Notes under the pieces: generated by a model
The model's database searches: none
What the model saw: only the letters and a program-made list of their open reading frames with translations
What the model was told of the DNA's origin: nothing
Source: Promethearchaeota archaeon
Lineage (GTDB): Archaea > Asgardarchaeota > Lokiarchaeia > Sigyniarchaeales > SOKP01
Assembly: GCA_048939995.1 (NCBI GenBank)
Contig: JBHLOY010000006.1
Span: 128,001 to 192,000 of the forward strand
Direction of reading: 5' to 3'
DNA length: 64,000 nt
Shown here: positions 750-47,928 of the stretch, piece after piece
Layout of the letters: each line of letters starts with the position of its first letter
Numbering within the stretch: the first letter of the stretch is position 1
Translations under genes and position numbers: made by a program

Positions 750-1284
750 TTAAATCTCACCTTTTATTTGATCATCAAAATCCCCATTATCAATTTTTTT
801 CTGAATTTCTCGTGGATCCTTTCCTTCAACAGTAGCCCCTATCGATAGCACTGTACCTAATACTGTTTTTAAGGAATTTTTAAACGTTTTATCTAAGAAT
901 CTTTCTTTTTTAGCAATCGCAACAGCAATTACTTGTTCCAATGTTAAATTACCAATCTTTGTTTCTGAAGCTGAAGCACTTCCTTTCTCAACACCCAATT
1001 CTTTCAGAAGAAGGGATGCAGTACTTGGAGTTTCAACAAAAATTTCAAATTGCTTAGTTTCGGGATCACATTCAATCCTAACTGGAACTGTTAATCCCTT
1101 AAAGATCATAGTTTTCTCATTGACAGCATCGACTACATCTTTAATGTTTATACCTGTTGGGCCTACGGCTGGACCTATAGGTGGCCCTCCTGACGCATTC
1201 GGGGTTTATTCTAAATGAATATTAAATTATAACTCTCCCACCAGTCACAAGAGCCTTTACAATTAATTTTCCTTTAGTACTCAT
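750..1284 (-). CDS. rpl11: 50S ribosomal protein uL11, intron-containing; join(complement 1235..1284, 750..1197), 165 aa after splicing
   Basis: The ORF track gives only the C-terminal 119 aa. ATG at 1284 encodes MSTKGKLIVKALVTGG; after a 37-nt insertion, another frame continues ASGGPPIGPAVGPTGINIKDVVDAVNEKT into the listed ORF. Confidence 0.93.
1198..1234 (-). other. Putative BHB (tRNA-type) intron in rpl11, 37 nt
   Basis: Central helix UGGG/CCCG, bulges AG^A and AA^U, intron stem GUU/AAC plus UAUUC/GAAUA, exon stem GGCUCUU-G-UGAC/GUCA-G-GAGGGCC. Contains an in-frame UAA; removal restores the frame. Confidence 0.85.
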
Positions 1285-1290
1285 GCAATT

Positions 1291-1295
1291 TCACC
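1291..1295 (-). promoter_or_regulatory. Shine-Dalgarno-like GGTGA, 6 nt upstream of the rpl11 ATG
   Basis: Minus strand reads GGTGA-AATTGC-ATG; supports 1284 as the real start. Confidence 0.7.
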
Positions 1296-1514
1296 GTTTT
1301 GCTTGATTATTTAGTAAAAAAATATACTTAAAAGGTCAAGAACGTAAAATTAAATTCGTTGTCAATTTTTATTCCAATATGTTTTATATCGAAACCGCTT
1401 TAATTTGCGTCCTAAGTCTTTTAAAAGTATATTTTGAACTTAGTATGAGAAAAAATGTATAAAAATTAATAAGTTTTATTATAATGTCTAAAGGGTCGAA
1501 TAGAAATTTATAGG

Positions 1515-1715
1515 TTAAAATCTACAACATAATCTTCTGCCATAATCTAGATTTTTTTTAAAAAACTCATCTGATAAAAATTCCATAATTTGGTCATAAT
1601 TAAAATTAGTTTTAAAGTTGGAATTTATCTGTTCAGGAATTTCCTTAACTTCTAACCCAGGAATGGCTATTAGTCTAAAGATTTCTTTTTTTATTTCTTC
1701 AGTTATTTCTTCCAT
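1515..1715 (-). CDS. Small hypothetical protein (66 aa) ending in RRLCCRF
   Basis: ATG-initiated ORF filling an intergenic gap, with protein-like composition. Confidence 0.65.
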   Translation of the reverse strand: MEEITEEIKKEIFRLIAIPGLEVKEIPEQINSNFKTNFNYDQIMEFLSDEFFKKNLDYGRRLCCRF

Positions 1716-1779
1716 TATAAAATTGTTATTTATTTAGATAAATAAATGTGAGCCTTAATTTTAAAAATATATTTTAGAC

Positions 1780-2454
1780 CTAAGTTTCTTCTAAAATGAC
1801 CTTGTGTGTGATTCTGCCAATTTTCTCAATCGATGCTTCAATTGTATCTCCTGGTTTAATAGGTGATATTCCACTTGGAGTCCCTGTTGCTATGATATCC
1901 CCTTTTTCTAAAGTCACAAATTTCGAGAGATATTCTAAAATTGCTGGGATTTTAAAAATCATATATTTAGTGTTGGAGGACTGTCTAACCTCATCGTTTA
2001 CTTTTAATTCAATATCAAGATTATGGGGTTCTTGAATCTCATTAACATCTTTTATAATAGGACCTATAGGTGCGAAAGTATCAAAATTTTTACTTCTATA
2101 CCATGGCAAATTAATATTTCTATCAGCTATTTGCATATTTCGAGCGGTTAGATCAAGAATTATGGTATAACCTTGAATATATTCAAATGCAGATTTAGCT
2201 GGAATGTGTTTGCATTTCTGATTTATGATAAATGCAAGTTCAACCTCATGATCCACCCTATTAAACTCTTTATTGTCAAATAATATTTTTGGGTAAATGA
2301 TTGACTCATTATTCATTATGAGTGTATTTATAGTTTTAACGAAGAAAACTGGTTCTTTAGGTATAGGCGCTTCTGTTTCTTTAATATGTTCTAAATAATT
2401 CCTTCCCAGACATAATATTTTTGTGGGATTAATTGAAATATTCCCAATTTTCAT
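1780..2454 (-). CDS. Fumarylacetoacetate hydrolase family protein
   Basis: KILCLGRNY, EPVFFVK, VDHEVELA, SKNFDTFAPIGP and GDIIATGTP motifs. Confidence 0.93.
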   Translation of the reverse strand: MKIGNISINPTKILCLGRNYLEHIKETEAPIPKEPVFFVKTINTLIMNNESIIYPKILFDNKEFNRVDHEVELAFIINQKCKHIPAKSAFEYIQGYTIILDLTARNMQIADRNINLPWYRSKNFDTFAPIGPIIKDVNEIQEPHNLDIELKVNDEVRQSSNTKYMIFKIPAILEYLSKFVTLEKGDIIATGTPSGISPIKPGDTIEASIEKIGRITHKVILEET

Positions 2455-2463
2455 CTTTAATAA

Positions 2464-3138
2464 TCACTCTCCTTCTAAAATTACTTTATTTGTAAGTGTA
2501 CCAATGTTTTCGATTTTTGCTTCAATTAAATCACCTGGATTGATTGGACCAATACCTCCAGGGGTTCCGGTAGCGATAATATCTCCTGACTCCATCGTAA
2601 AAAATTTACTAATATATTCTAATAATTTTGGAACTTTAAATAATAAATGTTTTGTGTTCGATGATTGTTTAATTTCTCCATTTACCTTTAATTCAATTTT
2701 TAGATTATGAGGATCTTCAATGCTTTTAACATCTCGTATAATTGGGCCTATAGGCCCAAATGTATCAAAAGATTTTGATCGGAACCAAGGTAACTTAGAA
2801 ATTATATCTTTAGCTTGCATTTTACGTGCTGTAACATCATTAAATACGGTATATCCAAGAATATATTTATAAACATCATTAGCAGCTACATACTTGCATC
2901 TAGTTTTTATAATGAATGCTAATTCAACCTCATAGTCAACTCGGTTATATTTGCGATTCTGATATAACCATTTAGGATAAATAATTGGTTCTCTATCTAA
3001 GATCAAACAATTTGGAGTTTTAGGGAATAAAACAGGCTCTTTTGGGATTTCTAATTTTGTTTCTTCAATATGGTCCATATAATTTGTACCAACGCAAATT
3101 ATTTTAGTAGGTTCAATGACTTTATCTCCAATTTTCAT
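2464..3138 (-). CDS. Fumarylacetoacetate hydrolase family protein (tandem paralog)
   Basis: Same motifs (VDYEVELA, SKSFDTFGPIGP, GDIIATGTPGG). Start moved to ATG 3138 (MKIGDK), which matches the paralog's N-terminus and 224-aa length. Confidence 0.92.
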   Translation of the reverse strand: MKIGDKVIEPTKIICVGTNYMDHIEETKLEIPKEPVLFPKTPNCLILDREPIIYPKWLYQNRKYNRVDYEVELAFIIKTRCKYVAANDVYKYILGYTVFNDVTARKMQAKDIISKLPWFRSKSFDTFGPIGPIIRDVKSIEDPHNLKIELKVNGEIKQSSNTKHLLFKVPKLLEYISKFFTMESGDIIATGTPGGIGPINPGDLIEAKIENIGTLTNKVILEGE

Positions 3139-3320
3139 GACCTCATTTATCTCCTTAAGATAATTACATTTTAACAACAAAAACATTCTAATCTTTACTA
3201 TTTGAAGAAAAACCAACTATATGCATCTAAATAACGTTTAAATTTTAAAGATAATTAATTTTCAGAAAAGTATAATTGGTATTGAAAATATATTTTATAG
3301 ATTAATTATATAACATTTTA

Positions 3321-3878
3321 ATGATTATGAGTGAGAGAGATACTAGATTCACGTTAAAAGTTGCAATGTGCGCAATTTTTATAGCTTTAGGAGTTGTGTT
3401 AAGTTATTTTAATCCTTTTGCATATATTTTAATATTTGGTACTAGAATTAATCCTTTTGCCCATCTTATCAACGCTATGACAGGTGTTTTAATAGGTATA
3501 AGTTTTTCATGCACTACTGCTTTAGGAATAGCAATAATACGATTTTCAGCAGGTATAGGGACAATACATGCTTTTCATGGAGGAATTTCAGGAGCATTTA
3601 TAGTAGGTATTATTGCTTACTATTTAAGAAAAAAGAAACCTGAATATAGTAATTTATCAGCTCTATGTGAACCAATTGGTACTGTCTTTATAGGAGGGAC
3701 TATTGCATATTTAATCGCGCCTATTGGTGAATCTATAATAGCAGGATTAATTACTTATTGGTGGTTATTCTTTTTAAGTTCTCTTACAGGGAGCATTATA
3801 GGTTTTGTAATTTTGATATTGTTGAAGAGGGTAGGATATAGTTGGGAAACCTTTTTTTTTAAATTAAATACCGTTTAA
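3321..3878 (+). CDS. thiW: ECF transporter S component, ThiW family
   Basis: Hydrophobic protein with NPFAHLINAMTGVLIG, GIGTIHAFHGG and EPIGTVFIG motifs. Confidence 0.82.
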   Translation: MIMSERDTRFTLKVAMCAIFIALGVVLSYFNPFAYILIFGTRINPFAHLINAMTGVLIGISFSCTTALGIAIIRFSAGIGTIHAFHGGISGAFIVGIIAYYLRKKKPEYSNLSALCEPIGTVFIGGTIAYLIAPIGESIIAGLITYWWLFFLSSLTGSIIGFVILILLKRVGYSWETFFFKLNTV

Positions 3879-3887
3879 ATCCTTTTT

Positions 3888-4472
3888 ATGAGATCATTAA
3901 ATAATTTTGAGTTTCAGAAATTTATTGGGCAACATACTCTATTATATGGAGAAAATAATACTCAAAAAACCTATTTAACAGCAAAATTTGTGGAATTTCT
4001 ATTTAATTTAAAAGAGTTTAAGCCTAAAGAAATTTCTATTTTAGATTTTGCCCCAAAATTAACTTACATTAACAATTTAAAAGTAGGAGGCCTAATTAAA
4101 GACTGTTTCAAGGATAGTAAAAAATGTAATTATATTAAATTCAAGGGAGAAATAATACCCCCTCGACTAAAAGCAAGAAATAAAGACGAGTTATATAAAA
4201 ATTTATGTCATAATTATAAAATAGTGTCAAATATCTTACAAAAATTTAATGAAAATCCTTCCTCTATTTTAATAATGAACGATATATCAATTTACCTCCA
4301 TTTGGGAAGTAAGAATTACATTTTAAATACAATTTTAAAAACAAATACCTTTTTTGGTAATTCATACTACGGATATTCGATTAAAAAAGATTTTTCAAAG
4401 CTATTAACTATTAAAGAGCGCAAACGAGTTGAGTTTTTAGCTAGGAGACTGAAAAATGCAATAAAAACATAA
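3888..4472 (+). CDS. Hypothetical protein, degenerate P-loop NTPase-like
   Basis: HTLLYGENNTQKT (Walker A-like) and ILIMNDISIYL (Walker B-like). Confidence 0.6.
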   Translation: MRSLNNFEFQKFIGQHTLLYGENNTQKTYLTAKFVEFLFNLKEFKPKEISILDFAPKLTYINNLKVGGLIKDCFKDSKKCNYIKFKGEIIPPRLKARNKDELYKNLCHNYKIVSNILQKFNENPSSILIMNDISIYLHLGSKNYILNTILKTNTFFGNSYYGYSIKKDFSKLLTIKERKRVEFLARRLKNAIKT

Positions 4473-4632
4473 TTTTTCCAAAAAAACCCCACGCATAAAA
4501 AAATCTAAAATTCTAAGAGTATTTTCAAAAATATCATAGAATCTCACTCTTTTTATAAAAAATTAGGGATAGACTTAAATTTTTAACAAATAAATTTTAT
4601 AAATATAAATTTTAATGTTTTTACGATAAAAA

Positions 4633-6138
4633 ATGAATGAAATTCATGATTTTTCTGTAATGAAGGATGGATTAAATTATAAATACTATGTCAATGGAAA
4701 ATGGAAAGTATCAGATTCGGGTAAAATTACTGCTATTTACAATCCTTATAATAATGATTTAATTGGATATGTTCAAGCGTGTAGTAAAAAAGATGTTGAT
4801 GAAGCGGTTAATTGCGCTAAAGAAAATGTAGATTGCTGGGAAAACACACCATCAAAAGATAGAATTGATGTTTTAAGAAAAGCAGCAGATTTAATGATGA
4901 AATGGGCCGAACCTATAGGAAAAATTCTTATGCAAGAAATAGGGAAACCATTAAAGATCGCTATTTCTGAAATTAGAAGAACTGCAGATATTTTTAATGC
5001 AACAGCAGATGCTGGCTCTCAAATAGTAGGTGAAACAATTATGGGAGACGCATTTAAAGGTTTTAATAAAGACAAAATATCAATGACTTATAGAATCCCC
5101 TTAGGAGTTGTATTATGTATAGGACCATTCAATTATCCTTTTAATTTAACAGGTTCAAAAATTGCTCCAGCACTCGTAGCAGGTAATAGTGTTATTGTAA
5201 AACCACCAAGTGAAGGTGCTATAACGCCATTACATTTTGGTGTAATTTTAGAGAAAGCAGGTCTCCCCCCAGGTGTATTTAATATTATTACAGGACGCGG
5301 TTCAGAAATTGGAGATTATTTAACCGGGCATCCAAAGATAGATATGATAGGTTTTACAGGATCTTCAGAAACAGGTAAGCATCTTTCTAAGGTAGCAGGA
5401 ATGAAACCTTTATTATTAGAACTTGGTGGAAAAGATGCTGCTATAGTTCTTGATGATGCTGATTTAGAATTAGCTATTAAAGCTATAGTAAAAGGCGCAT
5501 TTTCTTTTAGCGGACAAAGATGCACTGCAGTTAAAAGGGTTTTACCAATGCCAAGAATCGCGGATATTTTAGTAGAAAAAGTTACCAAAGAAGTATTGAA
5601 TTTAAGTATTGGGAATCCCGCAGAAAATATGACAATAGGACCTTTAATAAATTCACAAAGATGCGATTACGTTCAAGGATTAATTGATGATGCTTTGAGT
5701 AAGGGAGCCACTTTAAAATGTGGAAATAGAAGAGAAGGGAATATAATGTGGCCAACTATTCTTGATAATGTAACAACAGATATGCGGGTAGCATGGGAGG
5801 AACCATTCGGTCCCGTATTACCTTTCATTCGTATTCGTAGCGCTGAAGAAGCAATTGATATTTCAAATAAATCAGAGTATGGATTACAAGGTATGATTTT
5901 TACTAATAATATTGATCTGGCGTTTAATATCGCTCAAGAATTAGAAGTTGGGACAGTTCAAATAAACGGTCAGAGTGAGAGAGGACCTGATCATTTTCCA
6001 TTTTTAGGAACTAAATCCTCTGGATTGGGGACTCAAGGTATCAAATATTCAATAGAGGCGATGAGTCGTCCTAAAGTTGTGGTTATGAACTTAAGTGAGA
6101 AAGGGAAATTAATTCATGAGTGTAGGGTAGATAATTAA
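4633..6138 (+). CDS. gapN: Non-phosphorylating NADP-dependent glyceraldehyde-3-phosphate dehydrogenase (ALDH family)
   Basis: PFNYPFNLTGSKIAPAL, LELGGKDAA, FSGQRCTAVKR, WEEPFGPVLP and RGPDHFPFLG motifs, typical of GAPN. Confidence 0.88.
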   Translation: MNEIHDFSVMKDGLNYKYYVNGKWKVSDSGKITAIYNPYNNDLIGYVQACSKKDVDEAVNCAKENVDCWENTPSKDRIDVLRKAADLMMKWAEPIGKILMQEIGKPLKIAISEIRRTADIFNATADAGSQIVGETIMGDAFKGFNKDKISMTYRIPLGVVLCIGPFNYPFNLTGSKIAPALVAGNSVIVKPPSEGAITPLHFGVILEKAGLPPGVFNIITGRGSEIGDYLTGHPKIDMIGFTGSSETGKHLSKVAGMKPLLLELGGKDAAIVLDDADLELAIKAIVKGAFSFSGQRCTAVKRVLPMPRIADILVEKVTKEVLNLSIGNPAENMTIGPLINSQRCDYVQGLIDDALSKGATLKCGNRREGNIMWPTILDNVTTDMRVAWEEPFGPVLPFIRIRSAEEAIDISNKSEYGLQGMIFTNNIDLAFNIAQELEVGTVQINGQSERGPDHFPFLGTKSSGLGTQGIKYSIEAMSRPKVVVMNLSEKGKLIHECRVDN

Positions 6139-6139
6139 A

Positions 6140-6979
6140 ATGATTAACTTAAAAGATAAAACATTATTCATCACAGGCGCAAGTCGAGGCATAGGTAAAG
6201 CAATAGCCATGAGAGCTGCCCAAGATGGGGCAAAAATTGCTGTAGTGGCCAAAACCGCGGAACCAAATCCTAAATTACCTGGAACAGTATATAGTGCTGT
6301 TGAAGATATTAATAATACTGGTGGTAAAGGTCTTGCTTGTATAGCAGATATTAGATTTGAAGAACAAGTTCAAACAGCCGTGGATGCTACTATCAAAGAA
6401 TTTGGGGGGATTGATATCTTAGTTAACGATGCAAGTGCTATAAGTTTAACACCAACGTTGGATACTGACATGAAGAGATTTGATCTTATGTTTTCAGTTA
6501 ATTTACGCGGTACATTTTTATGCTCAAAATTATGTCTTCCCTATTTGAAAAAATCTGAAAACCCACACATTCTAAATCTGTCTCCGCCCTTAAATATGGA
6601 TCCAAAATGGTTTACTCATCATGTTGCTTACACAATGTCCAAATACGGAATGAGTATGTGTGTGTTAGGTATGGCTGAAGAATTTAAAAAGGAAGGAATT
6701 GCAGTTAATGCTCTCTGGCCTCGTACAGCTATAGCTACCGCTGCGGTTAAAAATTTATTGGGAGGAGATGCAACAATAAGACATTCAAGAAAACCAGAGA
6801 TTGTTGCTGATGCAGCTTATTTAATATTAACAAAACCTAGTAAAGAATGTACAGGAAACTTTTTCATAGATGATGAAATTTTAATTGAACATGGTATTAC
6901 AAATTTAGAAAAGTACTCAGTAGTCCCTGGTTCTAAGCTTATTCCAGATTTCTTTCTTTATGGGGGAGGACAAACTTAA
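6140..6979 (+). CDS. Short-chain dehydrogenase/reductase, HSDL2-like
   Basis: ITGASRGIG, AKTAEPNPKLPGT, YTMSK and VNALWPRTAIATAA motifs. Confidence 0.88.
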   Translation: MINLKDKTLFITGASRGIGKAIAMRAAQDGAKIAVVAKTAEPNPKLPGTVYSAVEDINNTGGKGLACIADIRFEEQVQTAVDATIKEFGGIDILVNDASAISLTPTLDTDMKRFDLMFSVNLRGTFLCSKLCLPYLKKSENPHILNLSPPLNMDPKWFTHHVAYTMSKYGMSMCVLGMAEEFKKEGIAVNALWPRTAIATAAVKNLLGGDATIRHSRKPEIVADAAYLILTKPSKECTGNFFIDDEILIEHGITNLEKYSVVPGSKLIPDFFLYGGGQT

Positions 6980-7108
6980 CTTAATTGATAAAGATATGAC
7001 TTAAAACTGATTAATTACTACCTCATTACCTCAATAATAAATTTAATAATAGTTATAACTCTAGAAATAAATAACAGCAATTAAAATTACCAATTAAGTG
7101 AGAATAAT

Positions 7109-7747
7109 TTGAAAAAGATAGTTCTTTTTGGTCCTCCTGGAGCGGGAAAGGGGACTTTTTCAGCCCAAATTAAGCAAGCTTTACCAAAAGTAGTCCACAT
7201 TAGCACAGGAGACATTTTTAGAGAAAATTTGAAAAATGAAACTACTTTAGGTTTGAAAGCCAAAACTTTTATGGAAAAGGGAGAATTAGTACCAGATAAT
7301 ATCGTTATTGAAATGATAAAGGATCGAATGAATAAAAAAGACGTTAAAAAAAATGGATTTGTACTAGATGGTTTTCCACGTACTTTATCCCAAGCAGAGG
7401 CGTTATCAGATATAACCAACATAGATTTTGTGTTATTATTAAAAGTAGATGAGGATATTATAATTAAAAGAATTCTTGGTAGATATTCATGTCCAGATTG
7501 CGGTGAACTCTATAATAAATATTTTATGAAGCCAAAGAAAGAAGATATATGTGATAAATGTGGAGCATCGATAAAATTTGAGCAAAGAAGCGATGATAAT
7601 GAAGAAATTTTAAGAAACCGTCTCGATGTATATAAAGAAAATGCCAAACCTCTCCTTGACTATTATAAAAAAAAAGGAAAAGTCAAAGAAATTAATTATG
7701 AAAATAAATTAACTGAAAAAGAAGTTAAAAACGTATTAGAACTATAA
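7109..7747 (+). CDS. adk: Adenylate kinase (bacterial-type, Zn-lid)
   Basis: GPPGAGKGT, HISTGDIFR, LDGFPRT, CPDC...CDKC lid and QRSDD. Confidence 0.95.
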   Translation: MKKIVLFGPPGAGKGTFSAQIKQALPKVVHISTGDIFRENLKNETTLGLKAKTFMEKGELVPDNIVIEMIKDRMNKKDVKKNGFVLDGFPRTLSQAEALSDITNIDFVLLLKVDEDIIIKRILGRYSCPDCGELYNKYFMKPKKEDICDKCGASIKFEQRSDDNEEILRNRLDVYKENAKPLLDYYKKKGKVKEINYENKLTEKEVKNVLEL

Positions 7748-7778
7748 CTATTTTTAACTTTCTTCATTTTATCATATT

Positions 7779-8531
7779 ATGAGCATTAATATTTGCATTT
7801 CAATTCCAATTAAATCTAATAGCATAAACGAAATTAAAATAGTAGTAGATAAAGCTTTAACATTCAATCCTGAGTTTATCGAATTTAGATTTGATTATAT
7901 TAATAAAATCGAATATTTAACAGAGAATTTTGTAAAACAATTAAAATCTTTAATTGAAAGTAAATGCTATTCTATTTTTGTCCTTAGAGATATTTCTGAA
8001 GGAGGAAAAGCTAAACTTGAGAAGTCCCAAAGGATAAAACTGTTAAAAATGCTGATTAAAACTAAACCAGACTTCTTCGATATCGAAATGAACTCAGATT
8101 TACAAACTCTTAGTGACATTATTAGCTTGTCTTTTATGACAAAAGTTAATTTATTTTTCTCTTATCATAATCTTGAAGAAACTCCAGATTTCGAGAGCTT
8201 AAAAGAGATAATTTTAAGGTTCGAAGAAAAAGTAATTAAAAATAATATGAATGAGTTTGACATTCTAGATAAGAGTGTATATAAATTAACGTTTAAAGCC
8301 AATAATTTTGAAGACAACATAATTCCTTTAAAAATTTGTCAAGAGTTATCAAAAAATAATAAAAAGATTATATCCTTCTGCATGGATGATATAGGAATTT
8401 TCTCAAGATTGATGTGTGTAAAGTTAGGTTCATTTTTAACTTATGCTGCTTTGGATGAACAGACAGCACCAGGACAAATTCATGTAAAAATAATGCAAGA
8501 ATTATATGAAATATTCTCAAATAATAAATGA
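7779..8531 (+). CDS. aroD: Type I 3-dehydroquinate dehydratase
   Basis: IEFRFDY, SEGG, DIE, SYHN, FCM and TAPGQI motifs. Confidence 0.88.
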   Translation: MSINICISIPIKSNSINEIKIVVDKALTFNPEFIEFRFDYINKIEYLTENFVKQLKSLIESKCYSIFVLRDISEGGKAKLEKSQRIKLLKMLIKTKPDFFDIEMNSDLQTLSDIISLSFMTKVNLFFSYHNLEETPDFESLKEIILRFEEKVIKNNMNEFDILDKSVYKLTFKANNFEDNIIPLKICQELSKNNKKIISFCMDDIGIFSRLMCVKLGSFLTYAALDEQTAPGQIHVKIMQELYEIFSNNK

Positions 8532-8566
8532 ATATATGCTTAAAATTAAAATATTAACTACCAATA

Positions 8567-9778
8567 GTGATTTATATGGTTGTGTATTTCGCATTTTTAT
8601 TCCATGTATATCAACCCCCAGTGCAAATACCGCAAGTAATTAAACAGATTGTCAATGAATCATATAAACCGATTATTAATGCATTAGAAAATCACACGCA
8701 TACCAAAATTACACTTAATATTAATGGTTCATTGACTGAGCAACTCCATGATTTTGGATATGATGATCTAATTCAATCTATAATTATGTGTGCTAATAGA
8801 GGCCAAATTGAATTCACAGGTTCAGCAAAATTCCATCCAATCCTACCTCTCATTCCACAACCGGAGATTAGACGCCAAATTAAGCTGAATGATGAAACTA
8901 ATCAATTTTTCTTTGGAAAACTTTATTCACCTCGCGGTTTTTTCCCTCCTGAAATGGCTATTTCTGAAGATGTTTTTAGAGTAGTAAAAAAATTAGGATT
9001 TGATTGGGTAATTCTTAGTGGAATCGCAAATATGCTTCCAGATTTTCCAATCAACTATATTTCTTTACATAAGAATGGTCTTAAGTTAATATTTAGAGAC
9101 GATTATATCTCAATTGATTGTGCATTTAATAAAATAAATAATGTAGATGCTTTCATTAATCGTTTGAAATACAAAAATACGAATGAGGATATGTATATAA
9201 CCTTAGCCTTTGATGGTGAGACTTTTGGGCATCATGTTAAACATGCTATTAAGGATTTCTTAATCCCACTATTTGAAACACTACCTTACAGAGAGGATGT
9301 AAAGCTTTGTACTGTCTCTGAAATCATTGATAAGTTTCCAACTAAATATAAACAAGTACCTCGTGAATCTAGTTGGTCAACATTGCCTTATGATCTAGCG
9401 CAAGATGTACCGTTTCCGTTATGGTTCGATCCCAATAACGAAATACATAGAGAACAGCATCGTTTTTTTATGTATGCGTTAACTTTGATCAATTTGTCTG
9501 CAAAATATAGAGAAAGTATGGATGAAGAAAAAAAAGAGATCTTTGAAAATGCCCGAAATTTGCTTGATAGAGGAATTTATAGCTGTCAACAGTGGTGGGC
9601 ATCACAAAAACCATGGTATAATCCTGATATGATATTACGTGGATTAAATGAGGTTTTAATGGGCAGTGTTAATGCAAAAAGAAGTATTCCCGATAGCAAT
9701 CCAGAAATTATAGAAGTTATGGAACTAATCATGAAAGATATGTTAAAAGCCCATAATAAAATTATATTATCTATATAA
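8567..9778 (+). CDS. Glycoside hydrolase family 57 protein
   Basis: HVYQP, HPILPLI, GFFPPEMA (nucleophile Glu) and DGETFGHH (acid/base Asp). Confidence 0.9.
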   Translation: MIYMVVYFAFLFHVYQPPVQIPQVIKQIVNESYKPIINALENHTHTKITLNINGSLTEQLHDFGYDDLIQSIIMCANRGQIEFTGSAKFHPILPLIPQPEIRRQIKLNDETNQFFFGKLYSPRGFFPPEMAISEDVFRVVKKLGFDWVILSGIANMLPDFPINYISLHKNGLKLIFRDDYISIDCAFNKINNVDAFINRLKYKNTNEDMYITLAFDGETFGHHVKHAIKDFLIPLFETLPYREDVKLCTVSEIIDKFPTKYKQVPRESSWSTLPYDLAQDVPFPLWFDPNNEIHREQHRFFMYALTLINLSAKYRESMDEEKKEIFENARNLLDRGIYSCQQWWASQKPWYNPDMILRGLNEVLMGSVNAKRSIPDSNPEIIEVMELIMKDMLKAHNKIILSI

Positions 9779-29751: not shown

Positions 29752-29757
29752 AAAAAA

Positions 29758-39226: not shown

Positions 39227-39236
39227 TTATTAATAA

Positions 39237-40064
39237 GTGAATTTTATGGTCGATATTTTGACAAGTAAATCTATGAAGATGAGCACCTATGCATATATTA
39301 TAAATAGAATTAATAATCAAGGGGCTCTGCATTTTTCCTTAATTGATCCCGATCCTGTTAAACAAAGTCCAAAAAAGGCAGCTAAAATAGCTGAATGTGC
39401 TTATGAAGCAGGAACTGATGCAATTTTAATAGGAGGAAGTACTGTTTTTGATCAACGTTTTGTTGATGAGACAATTTTGGCCATAAAAGACAAGATCGAT
39501 TTACCAGTAATAATATTTCCCGGCGGAATTACTAATATCTCCAAAGAAGCAGATGCCATTCTATTTATGTCTCTTTTAAATTCCGAGGATACGAATAATA
39601 TTATAGGTAATCAAGCACTTGCTTCATATACAATAAAAATTTTAAATATCGAACCGATATCGACAGCTTATTTAATAATTGAGCCTGGAGGAACAGCTGG
39701 TTGGATTGGGAGAGCCAAATTACTTCCACGAAATAAACCAAAATTAACAGCCGCTTACTCTCTTGCGGCTGAAATGATAGGTTATAAGCTTTTATACTTA
39801 GAAGCAGGTTCTGGGAGTGAAAGAATACCATCCGAAACTATCCAACTTTGTTCTAGCATGTTAAATATACCGATTATTGTTGGAGGGGGAGTTAAGAATG
39901 AGGATGCAGCAAGGGAACTTATTGAAGCAGGGGCAAATATTATTGTAATGGGAACTTATTTAGAAAATAACATCCTGCATGATAATGGGATGTGTTTAAG
40001 TTCTATTATTGATGAGATAAAGGAAGCTGGAACAACTTGTAAGAAAAAATATCCATTAAAATAA
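39237..40064 (+). CDS. Geranylgeranylglyceryl phosphate synthase
   Basis: HFSLIDPD, AILIGGS, LFMSLLNS, YLEAGSG and IVGGG. Confidence 0.92.
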   Translation: MNFMVDILTSKSMKMSTYAYIINRINNQGALHFSLIDPDPVKQSPKKAAKIAECAYEAGTDAILIGGSTVFDQRFVDETILAIKDKIDLPVIIFPGGITNISKEADAILFMSLLNSEDTNNIIGNQALASYTIKILNIEPISTAYLIIEPGGTAGWIGRAKLLPRNKPKLTAAYSLAAEMIGYKLLYLEAGSGSERIPSETIQLCSSMLNIPIIVGGGVKNEDAARELIEAGANIIVMGTYLENNILHDNGMCLSSIIDEIKEAGTTCKKKYPLK

Positions 40065-40077
40065 GGTTATATTTTAA

Positions 40078-40950
40078 ATGAAGTTGAAGGATATTATTGA
40101 AATACTCCGCCCTATAAATGATATAATGGGAAGTTTTACAGTAGTAATTGGTATATTAAATACAAGAATCGATATTCCAGTTGATCTTATTATAATAAAT
40201 ATAATTCTTGGAGCTATAACTTACTTCTTCATCGCGGCTTCAGGTATGGTTATTAATGATATCTATGATATCGAAATAGATAAGATAAATCGTCCACAAA
40301 GACCTATTCCAAGTGGAAGGATTAGCATTCATCAGGCAAAGATCATATTCTTTATCACATATGGAGTGGGAATAATAATATCTATATTTCACAGTCTTTT
40401 TTTTAGATTAGGGTTCCTGAATATAATTCTTGCAGTATTTTTTGGGTTTATTGGATGGGTATATGCCAAATGGGGTAAAAAAAGTGGTTTTTTTGGGAAC
40501 TTAATCGTCAGTGTTTCATTTTCAATCGGATTAGTTTATGGAGCCATATTAAATAATGCACTAATTCCTTCATATATTTATTTTTTCTTTTTAACTTCAT
40601 TTTTTCTATTGCTTTCTCGTGAAGTGATAAAAGGATGTGAAGATATTGAAGGAGATAGAGAATTAAATGTAAAAACTCTAGCTATTTTGATTGGTATTAA
40701 AAAATCTACTAAAATGGCAATCACTTTTTCCTTTTTGGCTATAATTTTTTTTATCTTGCCAAATCTTACACCCATTATTAGTCCAACATTGTTTCTGATA
40801 TCAATGATTTTTGGATTAGCTGTTGTTGGATATGCTACAATATTAATGTTTTATTCTAAATCAGAGAGAGAAAACTTTAAGAAAATTAGCTTATTTTTGA
40901 AAGTTGGAGCATTTTTGGGATTGTTAGCATTCTTACTTGCAAGCATTTGA
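40078..40950 (+). CDS. Digeranylgeranylglyceryl phosphate synthase (UbiA family)
   Basis: INDIYDIEIDKINRPQRPIPSG and REVIKGCEDIEGD. Confidence 0.9.
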   Translation: MKLKDIIEILRPINDIMGSFTVVIGILNTRIDIPVDLIIINIILGAITYFFIAASGMVINDIYDIEIDKINRPQRPIPSGRISIHQAKIIFFITYGVGIIISIFHSLFFRLGFLNIILAVFFGFIGWVYAKWGKKSGFFGNLIVSVSFSIGLVYGAILNNALIPSYIYFFFLTSFFLLLSREVIKGCEDIEGDRELNVKTLAILIGIKKSTKMAITFSFLAIIFFILPNLTPIISPTLFLISMIFGLAVVGYATILMFYSKSERENFKKISLFLKVGAFLGLLAFLLASI

Positions 40951-40954
40951 CTAA

Positions 40955-42382
40955 TTATTTAAAATGATCTAATAGTTGCACTATTTTTTCAAATTGATTG
41001 GCTTCAACAAATTTTTTAAGATTCTTCTTATCAAGTTCATTTAAATTTTTAAAGGGAAATGTTTCAATTAGTCTTCTTGTTTGACTTAAACCTAAATATT
41101 TTCTAGTATAATCTGCATTCGAATATTTGTATGTTGTTAGAAATTCACTATCTAAGATATTTCTAAAGTGCTCTAAAACATAATTAAAATAATTTTTTAG
41201 TGAAATTTGATCTTCTACTGAAAGTTGCGGTTCCAAAAAAATCTGAATTGGATGAGTTCGATAGGGATTTCTGGATACATATATACCAACTGCATTAAAA
41301 TCATCTTTAATAATTCCCAAGCCTACTCTTCCAACATATGAACCAGTATCTACAGTTCTTATGTATAATATGTTTGATTCTAATTTTTGCTTTAATTTTT
41401 CATTAATTTCTAAATCTAGCTTTTTATATTCATTATTTTTATATTGATTTGCATCAATTACCTTAACTTTATAGGTTCCCAAATTTTTTGAAACCATCAT
41501 ATTCGATAAATAATATTCTACTTTTAATGGTTTTATGGCACGATGTTTTTGTAAGAATTCATCAAATTCATATCCGGCTCTATATTTATGATTAGGTTTT
41601 AATATATAACTTTTTTGGATGATTTGATTTCCTTTCTTAACTTTAGTACCCAAAAATTTTACATTTTCTATTTTAGGTTCAATTTTTTTTTTAAAGAAGC
41701 CAATACATATGTGAGAGCCAGTAAATTCAAAGATTTTAGTCTCAAAAATGATCATATTATATATTTTATAATGTTTAAAGAAATCGAACCGGAATTTGTT
41801 AGATACTGAGGCTCCATATAGAAAATTTGAAGGTATAATATAAATTAGATTTTCAACATCATTTCTTAAATCATTTATCATAGCGATTTGATATAAGTCC
41901 TGATAACCATTATTTTCCCCTTTGAAATATTTAAGATATTGTTGGGTTTCATAATGCTTTTTAATATATCCCAAATATAAATATGGTGGATTAGTTATAT
42001 GGAAAATTGGTAAATCCTTTTCTTTAAGAAATTCAGGAAAAGACTCAAGATTATCTCGAATTAAAATATTACTTTTTGCTACATGTTCTGAAATTCCATA
42101 CGATTGAGCATTTTCTATGATCTTTTTGACCATTTCTTCTTGTACATCAAATAAGAATAAATGTTTTAAAAAGAAGTTATCCCTTCTTTTCGGATTTATA
42201 TATTTCAAGATAGGCAAAACTAAATTACCTTCACCAGCGTAAAGATCAACCCAAATAAAATTCTTTAGATGTTCCCTTATTTCTGGATATATATATTTAT
42301 GAAAAATCTCTTTGGAGGTTAAATGGATTCCAAATTTTCGTCGTCTCTTAACCTCTTGAGACTTATAAGTGTTATTTTTCAT
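40955..42382 (-). CDS. DNA amino-methyltransferase, orphan
   Basis: WVDLYAGEGNL (motif I), ITNPPY (motif IV) and IIPSNF. Confidence 0.78.
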   Translation of the reverse strand: MKNNTYKSQEVKRRRKFGIHLTSKEIFHKYIYPEIREHLKNFIWVDLYAGEGNLVLPILKYINPKRRDNFFLKHLFLFDVQEEMVKKIIENAQSYGISEHVAKSNILIRDNLESFPEFLKEKDLPIFHITNPPYLYLGYIKKHYETQQYLKYFKGENNGYQDLYQIAMINDLRNDVENLIYIIPSNFLYGASVSNKFRFDFFKHYKIYNMIIFETKIFEFTGSHICIGFFKKKIEPKIENVKFLGTKVKKGNQIIQKSYILKPNHKYRAGYEFDEFLQKHRAIKPLKVEYYLSNMMVSKNLGTYKVKVIDANQYKNNEYKKLDLEINEKLKQKLESNILYIRTVDTGSYVGRVGLGIIKDDFNAVGIYVSRNPYRTHPIQIFLEPQLSVEDQISLKNYFNYVLEHFRNILDSEFLTTYKYSNADYTRKYLGLSQTRRLIETFPFKNLNELDKKNLKKFVEANQFEKIVQLLDHFK

Positions 42383-42547
42383 ACTTTTTAAAATGAGTCA
42401 ATTTTAATTATTTTTATAAATAAATTAGCTCCAATATCATTTAAACAATATTAATGAAAACTGGTCTCCAATTTTTTTTTAAAATACTAAACTTTTTCTA
42501 TAATATCTAAATAGAATTACTATAAAAATTTAAAAAAATTTCTAAGG

Positions 42548-43831
42548 TTGTTAAATTTGAGTTATTCTGAGAACGAAATGATTAACAATTATTTAGAACA
42601 AGTACGAAAGAAATTACCTGAATGGTTAAAGCCAAAAAAAGAGGAAGTTAGTGCGATATTAAATGACCTTAATATGCAAATCTTAGACGAAGCAAGAAAA
42701 ATCGCAGGTGGAGAAGATCCAGACCCTGCTGATATCCAACAAGCATTAATTCAAATTGGATCTCCAGAAACTATTGCTAGGGTTTATAAGAAGCGTGGTA
42801 CCCCTAAGTTATATATAACTGAAGAGCTTTTTGAATTTTATTTAAGAACAATGCTTTTCTTTTTTGTAATTGTAACATTCCTCAATGTTATAATTGGTAT
42901 TTTTAGGTTGTTCTTTTCACCTTGGGAAGCCATAGGAGGGATGATTACAGGAACGTGGATTGGATGCTTAATCACAGCAATCGTAATAACTGGCGTATTC
43001 GTATTTTTTTCAATGCAAGGTTTTCTCCCCGAGGATTTTGGTGTGATTCCTTCTAGATTAGCACTAATTTTTCCATTTCATCTTACGCAACAAGAATTAG
43101 AAGAAACTAAGGAATACACAAAAGAAAGGCTCAAACAAGCAAAGGAAAGAGTTAAAGAAGTAATTGCTGAATCTCAAGCAAGGGTTGAAGATAAATTGAC
43201 CGAAGTTAAAGCATTACGGGAAGAAAGACTAGCTGCAGCTGAATTAAGACGAGAACAAAGATTATTAGAAGCAAGAATACGCAGAGAAGAAAAATTGGAA
43301 AGAAGTAGACGCCTTCGAGAAGAAAAGAAAGCAGTTGCTGAACAAAAGCGAAAAATGAAAAAGATGCAACCCGTCTCTTTAGGTGAACTTATTTTCGGAG
43401 CTATTGCAGGAATCATTTTTGGTTTATTTTTGATAATTCAGCCATTTGCTGGAATTAGTGGATTTTTACCTCAATTTTTAGATTGGCTTACGGTCTTTGG
43501 TCTTTTAATATTCGTAAGTGGTTTATTTGACCTTGTTAGATTGATTGCTGGTGTTAGAAATTATACTTCCCAACAAGTGTTACTTGGGATAAAAACATGC
43601 TATGATGCGGTATATATACCTCTGTTTTTATTTCTAATTGACAAACCTGGAATTTTCCCTATTTCATTCTTTTCAGGGGGTACAATTTCATCAATTCCTT
43701 TAGATACCTCTATCCCAGCTTACATAATTTACTTTTGGGTAATAATAGTTATCGTTTTGGTGATAATTGCTGGGATGATTGTTAATTTCTATAAAATCTA
43801 TAAAATTCAAAAGATAAAAAAAGCTTATTAA
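42548..43831 (+). CDS. HAAS-domain membrane protein with charged 11-mer repeat insertion
   Basis: NYLEQVRKKLP...IGSPETIARVY N-terminal HAAS-like domain; multi-TM; paralog of 43891..44883. Confidence 0.78.
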   Translation: MLNLSYSENEMINNYLEQVRKKLPEWLKPKKEEVSAILNDLNMQILDEARKIAGGEDPDPADIQQALIQIGSPETIARVYKKRGTPKLYITEELFEFYLRTMLFFFVIVTFLNVIIGIFRLFFSPWEAIGGMITGTWIGCLITAIVITGVFVFFSMQGFLPEDFGVIPSRLALIFPFHLTQQELEETKEYTKERLKQAKERVKEVIAESQARVEDKLTEVKALREERLAAAELRREQRLLEARIRREEKLERSRRLREEKKAVAEQKRKMKKMQPVSLGELIFGAIAGIIFGLFLIIQPFAGISGFLPQFLDWLTVFGLLIFVSGLFDLVRLIAGVRNYTSQQVLLGIKTCYDAVYIPLFLFLIDKPGIFPISFFSGGTISSIPLDTSIPAYIIYFWVIIVIVLVIIAGMIVNFYKIYKIQKIKKAY

Positions 43832-43890
43832 ATTCTTTTTTCTTTATTTTTTAAATTTTAACTTAAAAGAAAGAAAAATAAAAAAAAAAA
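43832..43890. terminator. Probable bidirectional U-rich terminator between convergent genes
   Basis: T-tracts follow the + strand stop; A-tracts (T on the - strand) follow the - strand stop. Confidence 0.5.
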
Positions 43891-44883
43891 TTATTTATAT
43901 TTTTGGAGTTTCCAAATTTTATAAATCTCATCTATACTAGTTAATGCAATTATTACAACTAATACAATCATACCACTTCTATAAGCTACATGAAATTCTG
44001 GGGGGATTCCAACGTGAATCCATGGAGTACTGAACCATGGAAAGATATCAGGACGATTCAATAAAATGATTAAGAAAGGTATAACTCCAAATTTGAGGAT
44101 TATTTTGATTAGATGTATAATTTGATGTGTTAAGGGTTGCCGATTTCCTATAATACCTCTAGTAATATCAAAAGAGCTTGCTATGATCATGAAGATTCCA
44201 AAAATACGAAGTAATAATAGAAATTCAGCAATGAAAAGACCCGCAGGAAATGGCTGGAATATAAATAAAACTCCAACTACTAATCCAATACCACCTCCAA
44301 TGATCTCACCAACAGGCTTTATAAAGGGTTTTGGTGGTAAGCCCATTTCAACTCTTAGTGCTTTCTTATCAAGCTCTTTTTTCGATTTAAAATCTTCTGG
44401 GAAATATCCCTCCATTGATAATGCTACAAATATAATTGATACAATAGCAAATGCTACAAATAATCCACTTTGTACACCTCCGATCAAGCCTCCTAATAGT
44501 TCTCCTAGATCTGTCGTCGTTCCGGATACAATATTAAGGATTAAGCCGATTACATTAAGTATTATTATGATTGCAAATACTATCACTAATACATTTAAAT
44601 AAAGTGGCCACAGTTCTTTTGTAATATAGACTTTAGGAGTGCCTCTTCTTTTATATTCTCTCGCTATGCTTTTTGGAGTCCCCATATGAGCTATAGCCAT
44701 TCGAATAGACTCTTCATTTGCTTGCCCCGAATCTGACAGTTCATTCGCTTTTTCCCATATATGTGTTTCAAGCTCAGCTAAAATTTCTTTATGTTCTTTT
44801 TTATCTTTTAGCCAATCTGGGAGCGCTTTCTTAACTTCTTTTATATATTCATTTACTAAAGATTCCAAATTTTTTTCATTCAT
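43891..44883 (-). CDS. HAAS-domain membrane protein
   Basis: EYIKEVKKALP...MGTPKSIAREY; overlaps the stop of the PadR gene. Confidence 0.8.
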   Translation of the reverse strand: MNEKNLESLVNEYIKEVKKALPDWLKDKKEHKEILAELETHIWEKANELSDSGQANEESIRMAIAHMGTPKSIAREYKRRGTPKVYITKELWPLYLNVLVIVFAIIIILNVIGLILNIVSGTTTDLGELLGGLIGGVQSGLFVAFAIVSIIFVALSMEGYFPEDFKSKKELDKKALRVEMGLPPKPFIKPVGEIIGGGIGLVVGVLFIFQPFPAGLFIAEFLLLLRIFGIFMIIASSFDITRGIIGNRQPLTHQIIHLIKIILKFGVIPFLIILLNRPDIFPWFSTPWIHVGIPPEFHVAYRSGMIVLVVIIALTSIDEIYKIWKLQKYK

Positions 44884-45422
44884 TTTTTAAATCCTCTTTC
44901 TTTTACTTCATTTTCAATATTGTGACCACATACATCACAATATCTTAACTCTAAAGTTGTAAGATCGATTTTATTAGCACAATTTGGACAGTATAAATAT
45001 CGTTCTCGTTTTAAGTTTACGTTTACATCAAATAAGGGTGCTATTGCTTCAGTTAGTTTGGAAAAAAATCCTGATAAGTAATTATATACTTTAATTCCAT
45101 TGGCTGTGATAAAGTAAAACTTCCGTTTTCGCCCCGTTTTTTCTCTTTCAGACCTTATTATCCCATCATCTTCTAATTTCCTTAATATTGGGTATAATGT
45201 ACCCTCTTCAATTATCAAAATTTCTTTAGTCTGATCTTGCAAATCTTTTGATATTTGATAACCATGTACCCCTTCATTTTCATAGCGATTAATAATGGAT
45301 AATATACATAACCCAGAAATACCTCTGTTAATCTCAGATTCAAATTTTGATGCATAATCAAGAAACTCTGGATCAAATCCCTTAATTCGTTTAATCATTC
45401 TTTCAACCTTTAATTTTTTCAT
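44880..45422 (-). CDS. PadR-family transcriptional regulator with C-terminal zinc ribbon
   Basis: HGYQISK, EEGTLYPILRKLE, RKRKFYFITANG and CPNC...CDVC; start taken at ATG 45422. Confidence 0.9.
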   Translation of the reverse strand: MKKLKVERMIKRIKGFDPEFLDYASKFESEINRGISGLCILSIINRYENEGVHGYQISKDLQDQTKEILIIEEGTLYPILRKLEDDGIIRSEREKTGRKRKFYFITANGIKVYNYLSGFFSKLTEAIAPLFDVNVNLKRERYLYCPNCANKIDLTTLELRYCDVCGHNIENEVKERGFKK

Positions 45423-45428
45423 TTTCTT

Positions 45429-45449
45429 ATAGTATTCATTCAATACTAT
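45429..45449. promoter_or_regulatory. Candidate PadR operator: ATAGTATT-N5-AATACTAT
   Basis: Perfect 8-bp inverted repeat immediately upstream of the padR ATG and next to a TATA-like element. Confidence 0.55.
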
Positions 45450-45563
45450 GCTATATATAATATTGGATTAATAATATTTAAAGCTTTGGATTGTAAATTA
45501 AACTCCCAAATTACCATTTCTAACACAAAATTAAATTAATTATTATCATTTTTTTAAAATAGA

Positions 45564-46397
45564 ATGGAATTATCAGATGATTTGCAATCCAAAATTAAAA
45601 ATCTTATCTCATATTTAAATAATAAAAAAGTGATTGTTGCCTTCTCAGGAGGAGTTGATAGTAGTCTACTTGCATTTCTTTCGAAAAAATATGCTAAGGA
45701 TACACTTCTTATAACTGAAAAATCAATTCTCTATCCTGATGAAGAAATTCAAGAAGCAAGTGAATTTGCAAAAACTTATCATATCTCTCACATCATTATT
45801 GAAAGGAACCCGCTTGAGAACGATAATTTTAAGAAGAATCCCCATAATCGATGTTATATCTGTAAAACAGGCTTATATAAAGATATAATTAAAATTAAAG
45901 ATGAAAAGAATTTTGATATTGTTCTTGATGGTTCAAATCAAGATGATCTCTCCGATTATAGACCAGGAATGCAAGCTTTAAAAGAATTAGGTATTAGTAC
46001 CCCATATATTGATTTTAAACTAACAAAACAAGATATAAGAAATATTGCTGAACTCTATAAATTAGAAGTTAAAGCAAAACCTTCTATGGCATGTTATTCA
46101 TCACGTATTCCTTACAATCAGCCAATTGATGAAAATAAACTATCTATGATAAGAGAAGCTGAAAATTTCTTAAAAAGTAATTTTAATCTAAAACAATTAC
46201 GAGTTAGATATCATGATGAAAGACTAGCGAGAATTGAGCTTTTACAAGAGGATTTAATACAAATTTTAAATAAAGACAACATAGCAAAAATTAAAACTAA
46301 ATTGAAAGAGTTAGGCTTTTGTTATATTACGATTGATTTAGAAGGGTTTCGATCCGGTTCATTAAATGAAATTTTATCTTTTACCAATAGAAACTAA
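45564..46397 (+). CDS. larE: ATP-dependent sacrificial sulfur transferase LarE
   Basis: AFSGGVDS, NRCYICK, DYRPG, KPSMACYSSRIP, LRVRYH and DLEGFRSGSLN. Confidence 0.92.
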   Translation: MELSDDLQSKIKNLISYLNNKKVIVAFSGGVDSSLLAFLSKKYAKDTLLITEKSILYPDEEIQEASEFAKTYHISHIIIERNPLENDNFKKNPHNRCYICKTGLYKDIIKIKDEKNFDIVLDGSNQDDLSDYRPGMQALKELGISTPYIDFKLTKQDIRNIAELYKLEVKAKPSMACYSSRIPYNQPIDENKLSMIREAENFLKSNFNLKQLRVRYHDERLARIELLQEDLIQILNKDNIAKIKTKLKELGFCYITIDLEGFRSGSLNEILSFTNRN

Positions 46398-46506
46398 TTC
46401 AATTAATATTACTCTTGGTCCCAGTATTAGATTCTAAATACATTTTTGGTTTGACAGGCGTTGTAGTTTCAAATGAAAGATATTTCAAAGGAAAATATTA
46501 CCTTTT

Positions 46507-47928
46507 TTATTCATTTTTTTTCAAATAATTAATAATTTTTTTACGTTTTTCTAACGATCTTAAAGCAGACGCTTCAATTTTTTTTTCCATTATATCCTTT
46601 CTTTCAGGGAGTTCCTCTCCAACTTCTTGCTTAATCTTTGTGTAAGCTGATTCTCTAAATCTTGGCAATATTGTTTCTGCTTTCTTATCTTTATATATCA
46701 TTTTTATTTGTTTTGAATCATCCACATAACCAATTTCTGCGCATTTTACATTGATTTTTGATAAATCTGAAATTATTTCTTTTGTAATAGATTTAGAACA
46801 GTAAATTAGTAGAGCATCTAATGAAACACCTAAATAATCAACTCCAACTCTTTCTAGTAAAGCCAAGACTGCTGGATTTACTAATTTTTTTACCTGCTCC
46901 TCATAAATTTTAACACCACACCCTGCTTCATAATTGATTTCATATAGATCTCCTCTAAGTCCTCCATTTGTAATATCACACATTGCTCTAATTTCTTCTA
47001 TATAATTCTTTGAAAGAATTTCTTTACACGCTTCAAGAAATTTAATATTCATCGTTTCGCTTATGATTTCATGATTTCCTGAATATATTGCTGTTGTTGT
47101 AATTGTTCCACCCCCTGCCCCTTCTGTCATCAAAATTTTATCCCCTACTTGAATATTCCGTCTAGCTAAAAGATTATCTTTTAAAATACCTACAGCGCTT
47201 ACTCCACCAACTAAACGATCTCCAATCACCATATCTCCTCCGATTCTTAAAGTAGATCCCGCAGTAATGGGTACACTTACTAACTCTGATATAGTTGATA
47301 TACCAGCCATAAAATCAAAAAGTTTACCCACATCAGCGTCATCTCCTAGGTGAACATCGACCATAATGGATATTGGTGTTGCACCTTTAACGTATAGATC
47401 TCGTAGTGCAGCTCTCGATACGCTTCATGTAAACCCATTACATGAAATTACGTGAAAACCACACACAAATGGAAAGTCGCTCAGCCGACTATGGATGCCT
47501 TCCATTTTAGATACTATTATAAGTTCATTTTCAGCTTCAAATCCTTCAATATCAGAAAGTCTTACTGCACCAGCATCATCTAACGAGCTTGGTGATAAAA
47601 ATGATTTATAATCGGTTTCTGACAATTCTGTTACCAACTTATGAACAAAAAAATCCCCTGCTCCTCGGCAACCGACACCCTGCTTACCGATTGTTACACC
47701 TGAATTATGAATCTCTAATAATTCTCTTACAAATCTATTGGATACATATTTTAAATCACTTTTCTTACACTCTTCTAAGATCGTTTTTGCATATTTCTGG
47801 GCAGATTGTAAATCAATATCTTTAAAATCAAGATATTCTTTGACCAATCTTTTTATAATAACTTCCTCAGAATTTCCTTTTTTCATTAAATTTCTTGTTA
47901 AACCTTCTAGATCACTCAAATTTTTCAC
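46507..47928 (-). CDS. PurM/HypE-like AIR-synthase-related protein, intron-containing; join(complement 47448..47928, 46507..47417), 463 aa after splicing
   Basis: The two listed ORFs are in the same frame and form one protein: GVGCRGAGDF, LDDAG, GIHSRLSDFPF..GFHV / TRAALRD..., GSTLRIGGD, DITNGGLRGD, PRFRESAYT. Confidence 0.9.
47418..47447 (-). other. Putative canonical BHB intron, 30 nt
   Basis: Exon stem GUGUGGUUUUC/GAGAGCUGCAC, central helix ACGU/GCGU, bulges AA^U and AU^C, perfect 9-bp intron stem UUCAUGUAA/UUACAUGAA. Contains an in-frame UGA; splicing gives GUA ACG AGA (V-T-R). Confidence 0.9.

Follow-up and report, generated by a model that had tools for sequence, protein, structure and literature searches.

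Probable tRNA-type introns in protein-coding genes of a Promethearchaeota genome

How does an archaeon make a ribosomal protein from a gene whose reading frame terminates after 20 codons? The question is raised by a 64-kb window (positions 128001-192000 of contig C23) of a Promethearchaeota metagenome-assembled genome (MAG), in which the gene for ribosomal protein uL11 (rpl11) and a gene of the PurM superfamily are each broken by a short insert. The source genome (G000; 3.75 Mb, 38 contigs) is 98% complete with 5.3% contamination; coordinates given without further label are window positions and C-numbers denote contigs of this genome. A preliminary description of the window assigned it to an Asgard archaeon, and this identity is borne out by the nearest named relatives in uL11, which are Promethearchaeota MAGs with 70-86% identity. 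We consider it very likely (probability about 0.93) that the inserts are real archaeal pre-mRNA introns of the tRNA type, which would be cut at bulge-helix-bulge (BHB) motifs by the splicing endonuclease EndA and joined by the ligase RtcB, and that such splicing is routine in this genome, involving at least 14 genes, and common in its family. The observations behind this view concern the geometry and register of the inserts, the conservation of their structure over their sequence, selection on the encoded proteins and the presence of the enzyme genes.

The inserts at the two loci are 37 and 30 nucleotides (nt) long, break the frame and carry a stop codon, as first described (Table 1). In rpl11, read on the minus strand from an ATG at 1284 to a stop at 750, the conserved ASGGPP motif resumes in a different frame beyond exon 1. 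The PurM-like gene runs from a GTG at 47928 to a stop at 46507, and its sole in-frame TGA falls within the insert. The BHB fold proposed for both is canonical only in the PurM-like insert (33% GC), which has one G-U pair in the helix, an intron stem of 9 bp and an exon stem of 11 bp. The rpl11 insert (22% GC) also has a helix with one G-U pair but is relaxed: its intron stem is 3 bp long, a G.G mismatch lies beside the second bulge on the exon side, and the 4+7-bp exon stem follows beyond an internal loop. Cutting after the second base of each bulge restores both the frame and a fitting residue, in agreement with the earlier proposal. The rpl11 junction then reads GGSASGG, in which S is the commonest residue (33 of 46 intron-free relatives) and cuts shifted one base either way give N or R; the PurM-like junction reads GFHVTRAAL, where T is the commonest (18 of 22 intron-free relatives) and shifted cuts give S or M. 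The PurM-like protein matches Pfam AIRS and AIRS_C and is thus related to AIR synthase, but it lies under all named NCBIfam cut-offs, so that an identity as PurM itself is not supported.

Table 1. Positions of exons, introns and structural elements at the two window loci, and of the first intron base at other loci of the source genome
Feature	Position	Strand	Remarks
rpl11 (uL11) exon 1	1235..1284	-	16 codons + 2 nt; GGTGA ribosome-binding-like site 1295-1291
rpl11 intron	1198..1234	-	37 nt, relaxed BHB; in-frame TAA 1224-1222; inner hairpin loop C-ATTTA-G (C-NNNTC-G variant)
rpl11 exon 2	750..1197	-	spliced protein 165 aa
Central helix of rpl11, exon strand UGGG	1237..1240	-	pairs with intron CCCG 1203-1200; bulges AGA 1236-1234, AAU 1199-1197
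Extended exon-exon stem around rpl11 intron	1183..1255	-	1255-1249 with 1189-1183; 1247-1244 with 1194-1191
rpl1 (uL1), intact	18..746	-	start 3 nt past rpl11 stop
AIR-synthase-related (PurM-superfamily) gene exon 1	47448..47928	-	160 codons + 1 nt
PurM-like intron	47418..47447	-	30 nt, canonical BHB; helix ACGU 47453-47450 / GCGU 47423-47420; bulges AAU, AUC; in-frame TGA
AIR-synthase-related gene exon 2	46507..47417	-	spliced protein 463 aa
MetRS intron	C6 82172	+	motif-free census
PurA intron	C7 109926	-	motif-free census
Low-molecular-weight tyrosine phosphatase intron	C17 37247	+	motif-free census
Acyl-CoA dehydrogenase intron	C17 23476	+	motif-free census
241-aa protein intron	C19 22792	-	motif-free census
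AAA ATPase intron	C7 20329	+	motif-free census
DnaG intron	C11 487250	-	motif scan + homology
Mevalonate kinase intron	C28 379867	+	motif scan + homology
CoA-transferase intron	C38 64707	+	motif scan + homology
PAC2 protein intron	C7 27864	+	motif scan + homology
FwdA intron	C17 377452	-	geometry + frame only
EF-1alpha intron	C11 167345	-	geometry + frame

For a census free of motif assumptions, proteins encoded in about 2 Mb of DNA from relatives were aligned to the source genome at 1,216 loci, frame-breaking insertions of at most 45 nt with conserved flanks were collected, and the helix was scored at the position defined by homology. Eight such insertions were found, in rpl11, the PurM-like gene and the six other genes marked as census sites in Table 1, and the central helix is present in all eight. 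The reciprocal search yielded six more insertions in relatives, among them those in a histone-like protein and in an AAA ATPase with three introns. When the sets are pooled, the full four-pair helix occurs in 12 of 14 frame-breaking insertions versus 9 of 64 frame-keeping indels (Fisher p=5e-7); with the rpl11 and PurM-like sites removed it occurs in 10 of 12 (p=5e-6). Two longer frame-breaking hits, of 67 and 69 nt, proved to be a gene fission and an antisense open reading frame (ORF) and were excluded from the Fisher table.

A genome scan with the motif alone had no specificity at loose settings and returned 24 sites against 5-14 decoys at strict ones; four of six candidates checked by homology held, and those rejected were a pair of tandem paralogs and an intact acyl-CoA synthetase. 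The six introns found later (DnaG, mevalonate kinase, CoA-transferase, PAC2, EF-1alpha and FwdA) all lie outside the census set. The source genome thus has 14 BHB introns of 21-37 nt, a number to be read as a floor, and each of the 14 has the 4-bp central helix, with its 5' strand in the exon and its 3' strand in the intron. Random excision of 21-38 nt from coding DNA of the same genome gives a four-pair helix in 2.6% of cases, and a helix with an intron stem of at least 3 bp in 0.17%. The BHB cut is the only one, or the best one, to give the right junction residue in rpl11 and the PurM-like gene, as described above, and also in EF-1alpha (the P-loop K) and the AAA gene (H followed by P). The census frequency, about 0.7% of sampled conserved genes (8/1,216), would correspond to roughly 15-30 introns per genome, an extrapolation that is loose because the census favours conserved genes. 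The expectation that many split genes of this organism contain introns is therefore right as far as further intron-bearing genes exist, but ordinary pseudogenes and gene fissions occur as well (48014-48375 and C26, respectively).

Several of these loci merit separate mention. In the PAC2 gene (L232, C7:27700-28800), an upstream ATG within the intron is in frame with exon 2 and opens a frame of 266 amino acids (aa); unspliced RNA could give a protein with a different N-terminus. The AAA ATPase of relative G064 (C10, about 139.5-139.9 kb) has three BHB introns, one of them in Walker A, and a 65-aa gene of G061 (C1, about 39.6 kb), which we take to be histone-like from its motif, has a 28-nt intron. 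At C26+51969, a 1,155-aa protein of G064 corresponds to two genes of the source genome with a 67-nt spacer and no BHB, indicating fission or fusion.

Are the interrupted genes still functional? The identical 37-nt rpl11 insert is found in two other, independent NCBI assemblies, from near-identical strains (99.6-99.8% identical to the window); it is therefore not an assembly error, and its presence in DNA, a point on which the intron proposal hung, is upheld. rpl11, PurA, the AAA gene, mevalonate kinase and PAC2 are each encoded at a single locus, no intact second copy of MetRS, DnaG or the PurM-like gene was found in the source genome, and EF-1alpha has only distant GTPase paralogs there. Ratios of nonsynonymous to synonymous substitution (dN/dS) in downstream exons are 0.07-0.11 in carriers versus 0.09-0.12 in intron-free alleles, with no other stops, and the intron-bearing genes are under unchanged purifying selection. 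Neither window gene thus shows the combination of an intact duplicate and relaxed selection that had been named as grounds for refutation. Decay or misassembly might be suspected from the level of contamination in the MAG, from the presence of a true pseudogene at 48014-48375 and from the dispensability of uL11 in some bacteria. However, the same intron sites recur in many species, and the interrupted genes include EF-1alpha, MetRS and DnaG, which are essential; together with the selection data these observations render this explanation scarcely credible. The pseudogene itself (minus strand), which adjoins the PurM-like gene, is a decayed CheY-like response regulator with point stops, a frameshift and no insert, unlike the intron-bearing genes.

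The survey across orthologs that had been suggested shows a patchy presence of introns in rpl11, the PurM-like gene and EF-1alpha. Inserts of 28-38 nt are present in 28 of 75 full rpl11 genes and at four positions only, nt 50, 71, 83 and 100, the first being the site of the window with 13 carriers. There are up to three introns per rpl11 gene, one congener carrying three, and multi-intron genes leave micro-exons of 12-29 nt. In a class-wide profile search, rpl11 was broken or had a stop close to its start in about 55 of 127 family members versus none of 25 genomes from other families, a manual count in which BHB structures were confirmed only at the loci read. Of 29 congeners, 6 have the PurM-like intron, at an unchanged site and always 30 nt long; its stem sequence varies and the pairing is kept. 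EF-1alpha has four intron sites around the first GTP-binding motif, and the four-pair helix is found in all ten resolved inserts. Breaks in the EF-1alpha genes of L322, L330 and L333 do not resolve as a single intron, possibly reflecting two introns or a break beyond the fetched stretch. The rpl11, EF-1alpha and PurM-like genes are uninterrupted in three single-contig genomes of a neighbouring family. Five records titled Thor-, Hod-, Hermod-, Odinarchaeota and Nanopelagicaceae (L010, L017, L028, L039 and L012) encode a uL11 that is 75-81% identical to the Loki-type protein; their titles are probably mislabelled, and they are therefore no evidence of spread to those groups.

At rpl11 nt 50, structure is conserved over sequence. 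All cells of the central helix are paired in the 13 carriers, four with a change on both sides, and UA, AU and UG pairs are exchanged between the exon wobble base and the intron. For the whole structure 93% of cells are paired, versus 87% in shuffled controls (0/500) and no more than 57% in slid ones. These data bear on a different reading, namely that the mRNA retains the inserts and the ribosome passes them by read-through, frameshifting or hopping. Recoding signals typically have a hairpin beside a stop codon, and the stop-adjacent hairpins here resemble one; matching take-off and landing codons lie within four codons at 6 of the 14 sites, including the PurM-like one (GTA). Such a pair is missing at rpl11 and seven other sites, among them MetRS, EF-1alpha, DnaG, PurA and mevalonate kinase. 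Recoding fails at these eight because of the lack of matched codons, and programmed bypass of the T4 gene 60 type was rejected on the same ground. Moreover, inserts at a single site vary in length across all three frames, from 28 to 38 nt at nt 50 of rpl11 and between 32 and 33 nt in EF-1alpha; PurM-like alleles differ in having TGA or TAA as the stop, and recoding leaves the exon-intron covariation and the fixed bulge register unexplained. We regard it as very improbable. Self-splicing by a group I or II intron was likewise dismissed: such introns have a catalytic RNA core of hundreds of bases, and the inserts measure 21-38 nt, with no Rfam match in the window.

On the evidence of sequence and covariation, the folded transcript has a helix of four exon and four intron bases, enclosed by two A-rich bulges of 3 bases each. 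By analogy with established archaeal tRNA and cbf5 splicing, a two-subunit EndA would cut past the second base of each bulge, RtcB would ligate the exons, and the joined mRNA would be translated. Both enzymes proposed at the outset are encoded in the genome, EndA apparently in a two-subunit form; the genes for its two subunits lie at about C3:124,000 and C28:98,500, and that for RtcB at about C19:21,000. The alpha paralog has the Tyr/His/Lys triad, aligns best with EndA of A. pernix (E 5e-37) and has equivalents of K44 and R46 in its loop, whereas the second paralog lacks the His and may serve as a structural subunit, the pair being consistent with an alpha2-beta2 enzyme. The Aeropyrum loop with K44/R46 is needed for cutting relaxed motifs (PMC3241643), and the corresponding broad-specificity loop would permit the relaxed cutting required at the rpl11 site. 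RtcB is encoded by a 492-aa frame. Similar BHB inserts of 18-32 nt occur in tRNA genes of the source genome, some outside the anticodon loop, including the D arm.

Removal at the RNA level could instead be the work of another nuclease or ligase, or require an extra factor that reads a shared loop. Many of the intron sites are relaxed motifs, and the C-NNNTC-G five-base loop is common to about 9 of 22 independent, unrelated sites versus 0.44 in shuffles, suggesting common descent or a recognition element; we know of no EndA that reads intron loops. The preliminary description saw no obvious sequence similarity between the introns, and this holds for the rpl11 and PurM-like pair but not for the many sites that share this loop. 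Against an alternative machinery, geometry and cut register match EndA exactly, an EndA with a broad-specificity loop is encoded, and 12 of 22 sites, including the PurM-like introns, are without the loop motif. This alternative therefore appears highly unlikely.

Some observations weigh against EndA/RtcB splicing of these mRNAs. No spliced transcript was seen for rpl11 or the PurM-like gene; three low-depth contig sets, which may be RNA or DNA, span neither junction. At rpl11 and several other sites the exon-side pair is missing, and only three of four helix pairs form at 5 of 11 rpl11 nt 71 sites and in three mevalonate-kinase alleles, so that cleavage at relaxed or three-pair sites hangs on an enzyme specificity deduced from one loop. 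The rpl11 carriers are related, and the covariation controls consequently overstate significance; in MetRS, the BHB cut yields I where the single reference has T. Other records are neutral. The joined form of rpl11 with carrier-type flanks was recovered by exact search in one metagenome contig, and a short ENA contig (L288) likewise has carrier flanks and no intron; these may be spliced RNA or intron-lost DNA alleles and were counted neither way. Public annotations of rpl11 genes with introns (P0001, P0008, P0035) are truncated or start with intron-encoded residues, and no database protein matching the spliced products of the source genome was found.

The distribution of the introns raises the question of whether they move. 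On a tree of distal rpl11 the 13 nt-50 carriers require 10 changes, and on the PurM-like tree seven carriers require six. At fourfold sites, carriers are 70% identical near nt 50, part of which comes from the exon stem, versus 41% in distal rpl11, the level of non-carriers. Close pairs that differ in the intron show 3.8-fold more divergence at nt 33-120 than distally, compared with 0.93 in pairs that agree (7 differing and 18 agreeing pairs, which are non-independent). In several pairs the divergent patch also spans 100-200 nt upstream with near-identical DNA on both sides, and one intron-free pair behaves alike. Four pairs of otherwise near-identical genomes (L007/L081, L031/L071, L054/L078, L004/L012) have a highly divergent patch of about 300 nt, comprising the upstream spacer and the first 120 nt of rpl11, whether or not introns are present. 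The PurM-like carriers have RAALRD without exception, even within a clade that reads RACLRD. Finally, a contig with about 98% identity to the window departs from it at 1238, where ten bases encode the same residues by four different codons with no intron; this allele rests on one contig at depth 3 (run X2, record 9). Taken together, these patterns point to exchange of patches by recombination rather than precise loss only.

Mobilization by a homing endonuclease was rejected. No long intron forms exist among 78 rpl11 loci, no nuclease-like ORF lies upstream of rpl11, where spacer length is equal in carriers and non-carriers, and homing endonuclease PF14528 was not found in the genome with the query used, other nuclease families being outside the search. 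Reverse transcriptase PF00078 was not found with the query used either, nor was a second copy of any of the introns in the genome. The odds are about even for a broader view, in which one large Lokiarchaeia-type family routinely splices its mRNAs by EndA/RtcB, with tens of intron-bearing genes in each genome and rpl11 introns in more than 40% of species. In this view the introns form a still-moving family, many of them derived from a common C-NNNTC-G hairpin, and pass between lineages when short stretches of exon and upstream DNA recombine, with no endonuclease encoded in them or beside them.

The closest known system is the cbf5 intron, reportedly the subject of studies by Watanabe in 2002 and Yoshinari in 2006. 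This short intron within coding sequence often has a relaxed BHB and is cut between the second and third bases of the bulge. It splits a conserved motif, depends on a hetero-oligomeric EndA and is patchy in occurrence, and the inserts described here would resemble it in these respects. By all defining features testable in sequence they would work like it, rpl11 only in relaxed form, and would differ in scale, lineage and apparent mobility: for cbf5 there is cDNA proof at a single site in a single gene, whereas the present introns affect at least 14 genes per genome, with several sites and up to three introns per gene, and are known in Asgard from sequence alone. The inserts are not the cbf5 intron itself, which lies at the catalytic Asp codon; cbf5 is open, with no stops, in the source genome and four relatives. 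The intron is cDNA-proven in Desulfurococcales and Sulfolobales, and introns in other archaeal protein genes were predicted but unconfirmed as of 2009 (PMC2738675). In Haloferax, HVO_1309 mRNA is also an EndA substrate through a BHB, but its intron sits in the 5' untranslated region, where it has no bearing on a reading frame (Schwarz et al. 2020, PMC7714728); the same paper counts cbf5 as the sole other case. In the searchable literature, coding-sequence introns in archaea are thus confirmed for cbf5 only. Asgard tRNA genes contain non-canonical introns that are likewise short, BHB-bounded and repeatedly gained, in the same phylum group with two EndA paralogs; that study, which leaves their route of arrival unknown, covers tRNA genes only and never mentions mRNA (bioRxiv 10.64898/2026.10.13.758758). 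No paper on Asgard mRNA introns was found in the literature searched, subscription journals and 2006 predictions being outside the search.

The bearing on XBP1 suggested earlier holds as an analogy, through RtcB, and does not extend to the cutting enzyme. XBP1 and HAC1 also have a short frame-shifting intron removed by an endonuclease, with RtcB ligation in animals; unlike the BHB-type introns here, they are cut by IRE1, not a tRNA endonuclease, at two stem-loops under stress regulation.

Almost certainly, judging from the interrupted frames, mRNAs of at least 14 genes, including the only EF-1alpha, MetRS and primase genes, need cutting and rejoining. A close prokaryotic relative of eukaryotes therefore seems to depend on protein-catalysed splicing to express core genes of translation, replication and metabolism, without a spliceosome, and the tolerance, gain and loss of intron-rich coding genes without a nucleus become testable. 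Misannotated intron-bearing genes affect Asgard marker-gene phylogenies and claims of gene loss. If the three intron-free single-contig genomes are cultured strains, as we presume, this would explain why the introns were missed.

Among the window genes covered by relatives, no intron was found beyond the two described. Two tandem paralogs of the fumarylacetoacetate-hydrolase family (1780-3216, minus strand) lie upstream of rpl11, and in most relatives a conserved gene of 62-66 aa ending in RRLCCRF (about 1520-1720 in the window, minus strand) precedes rpl11 by about 200-260 nt.

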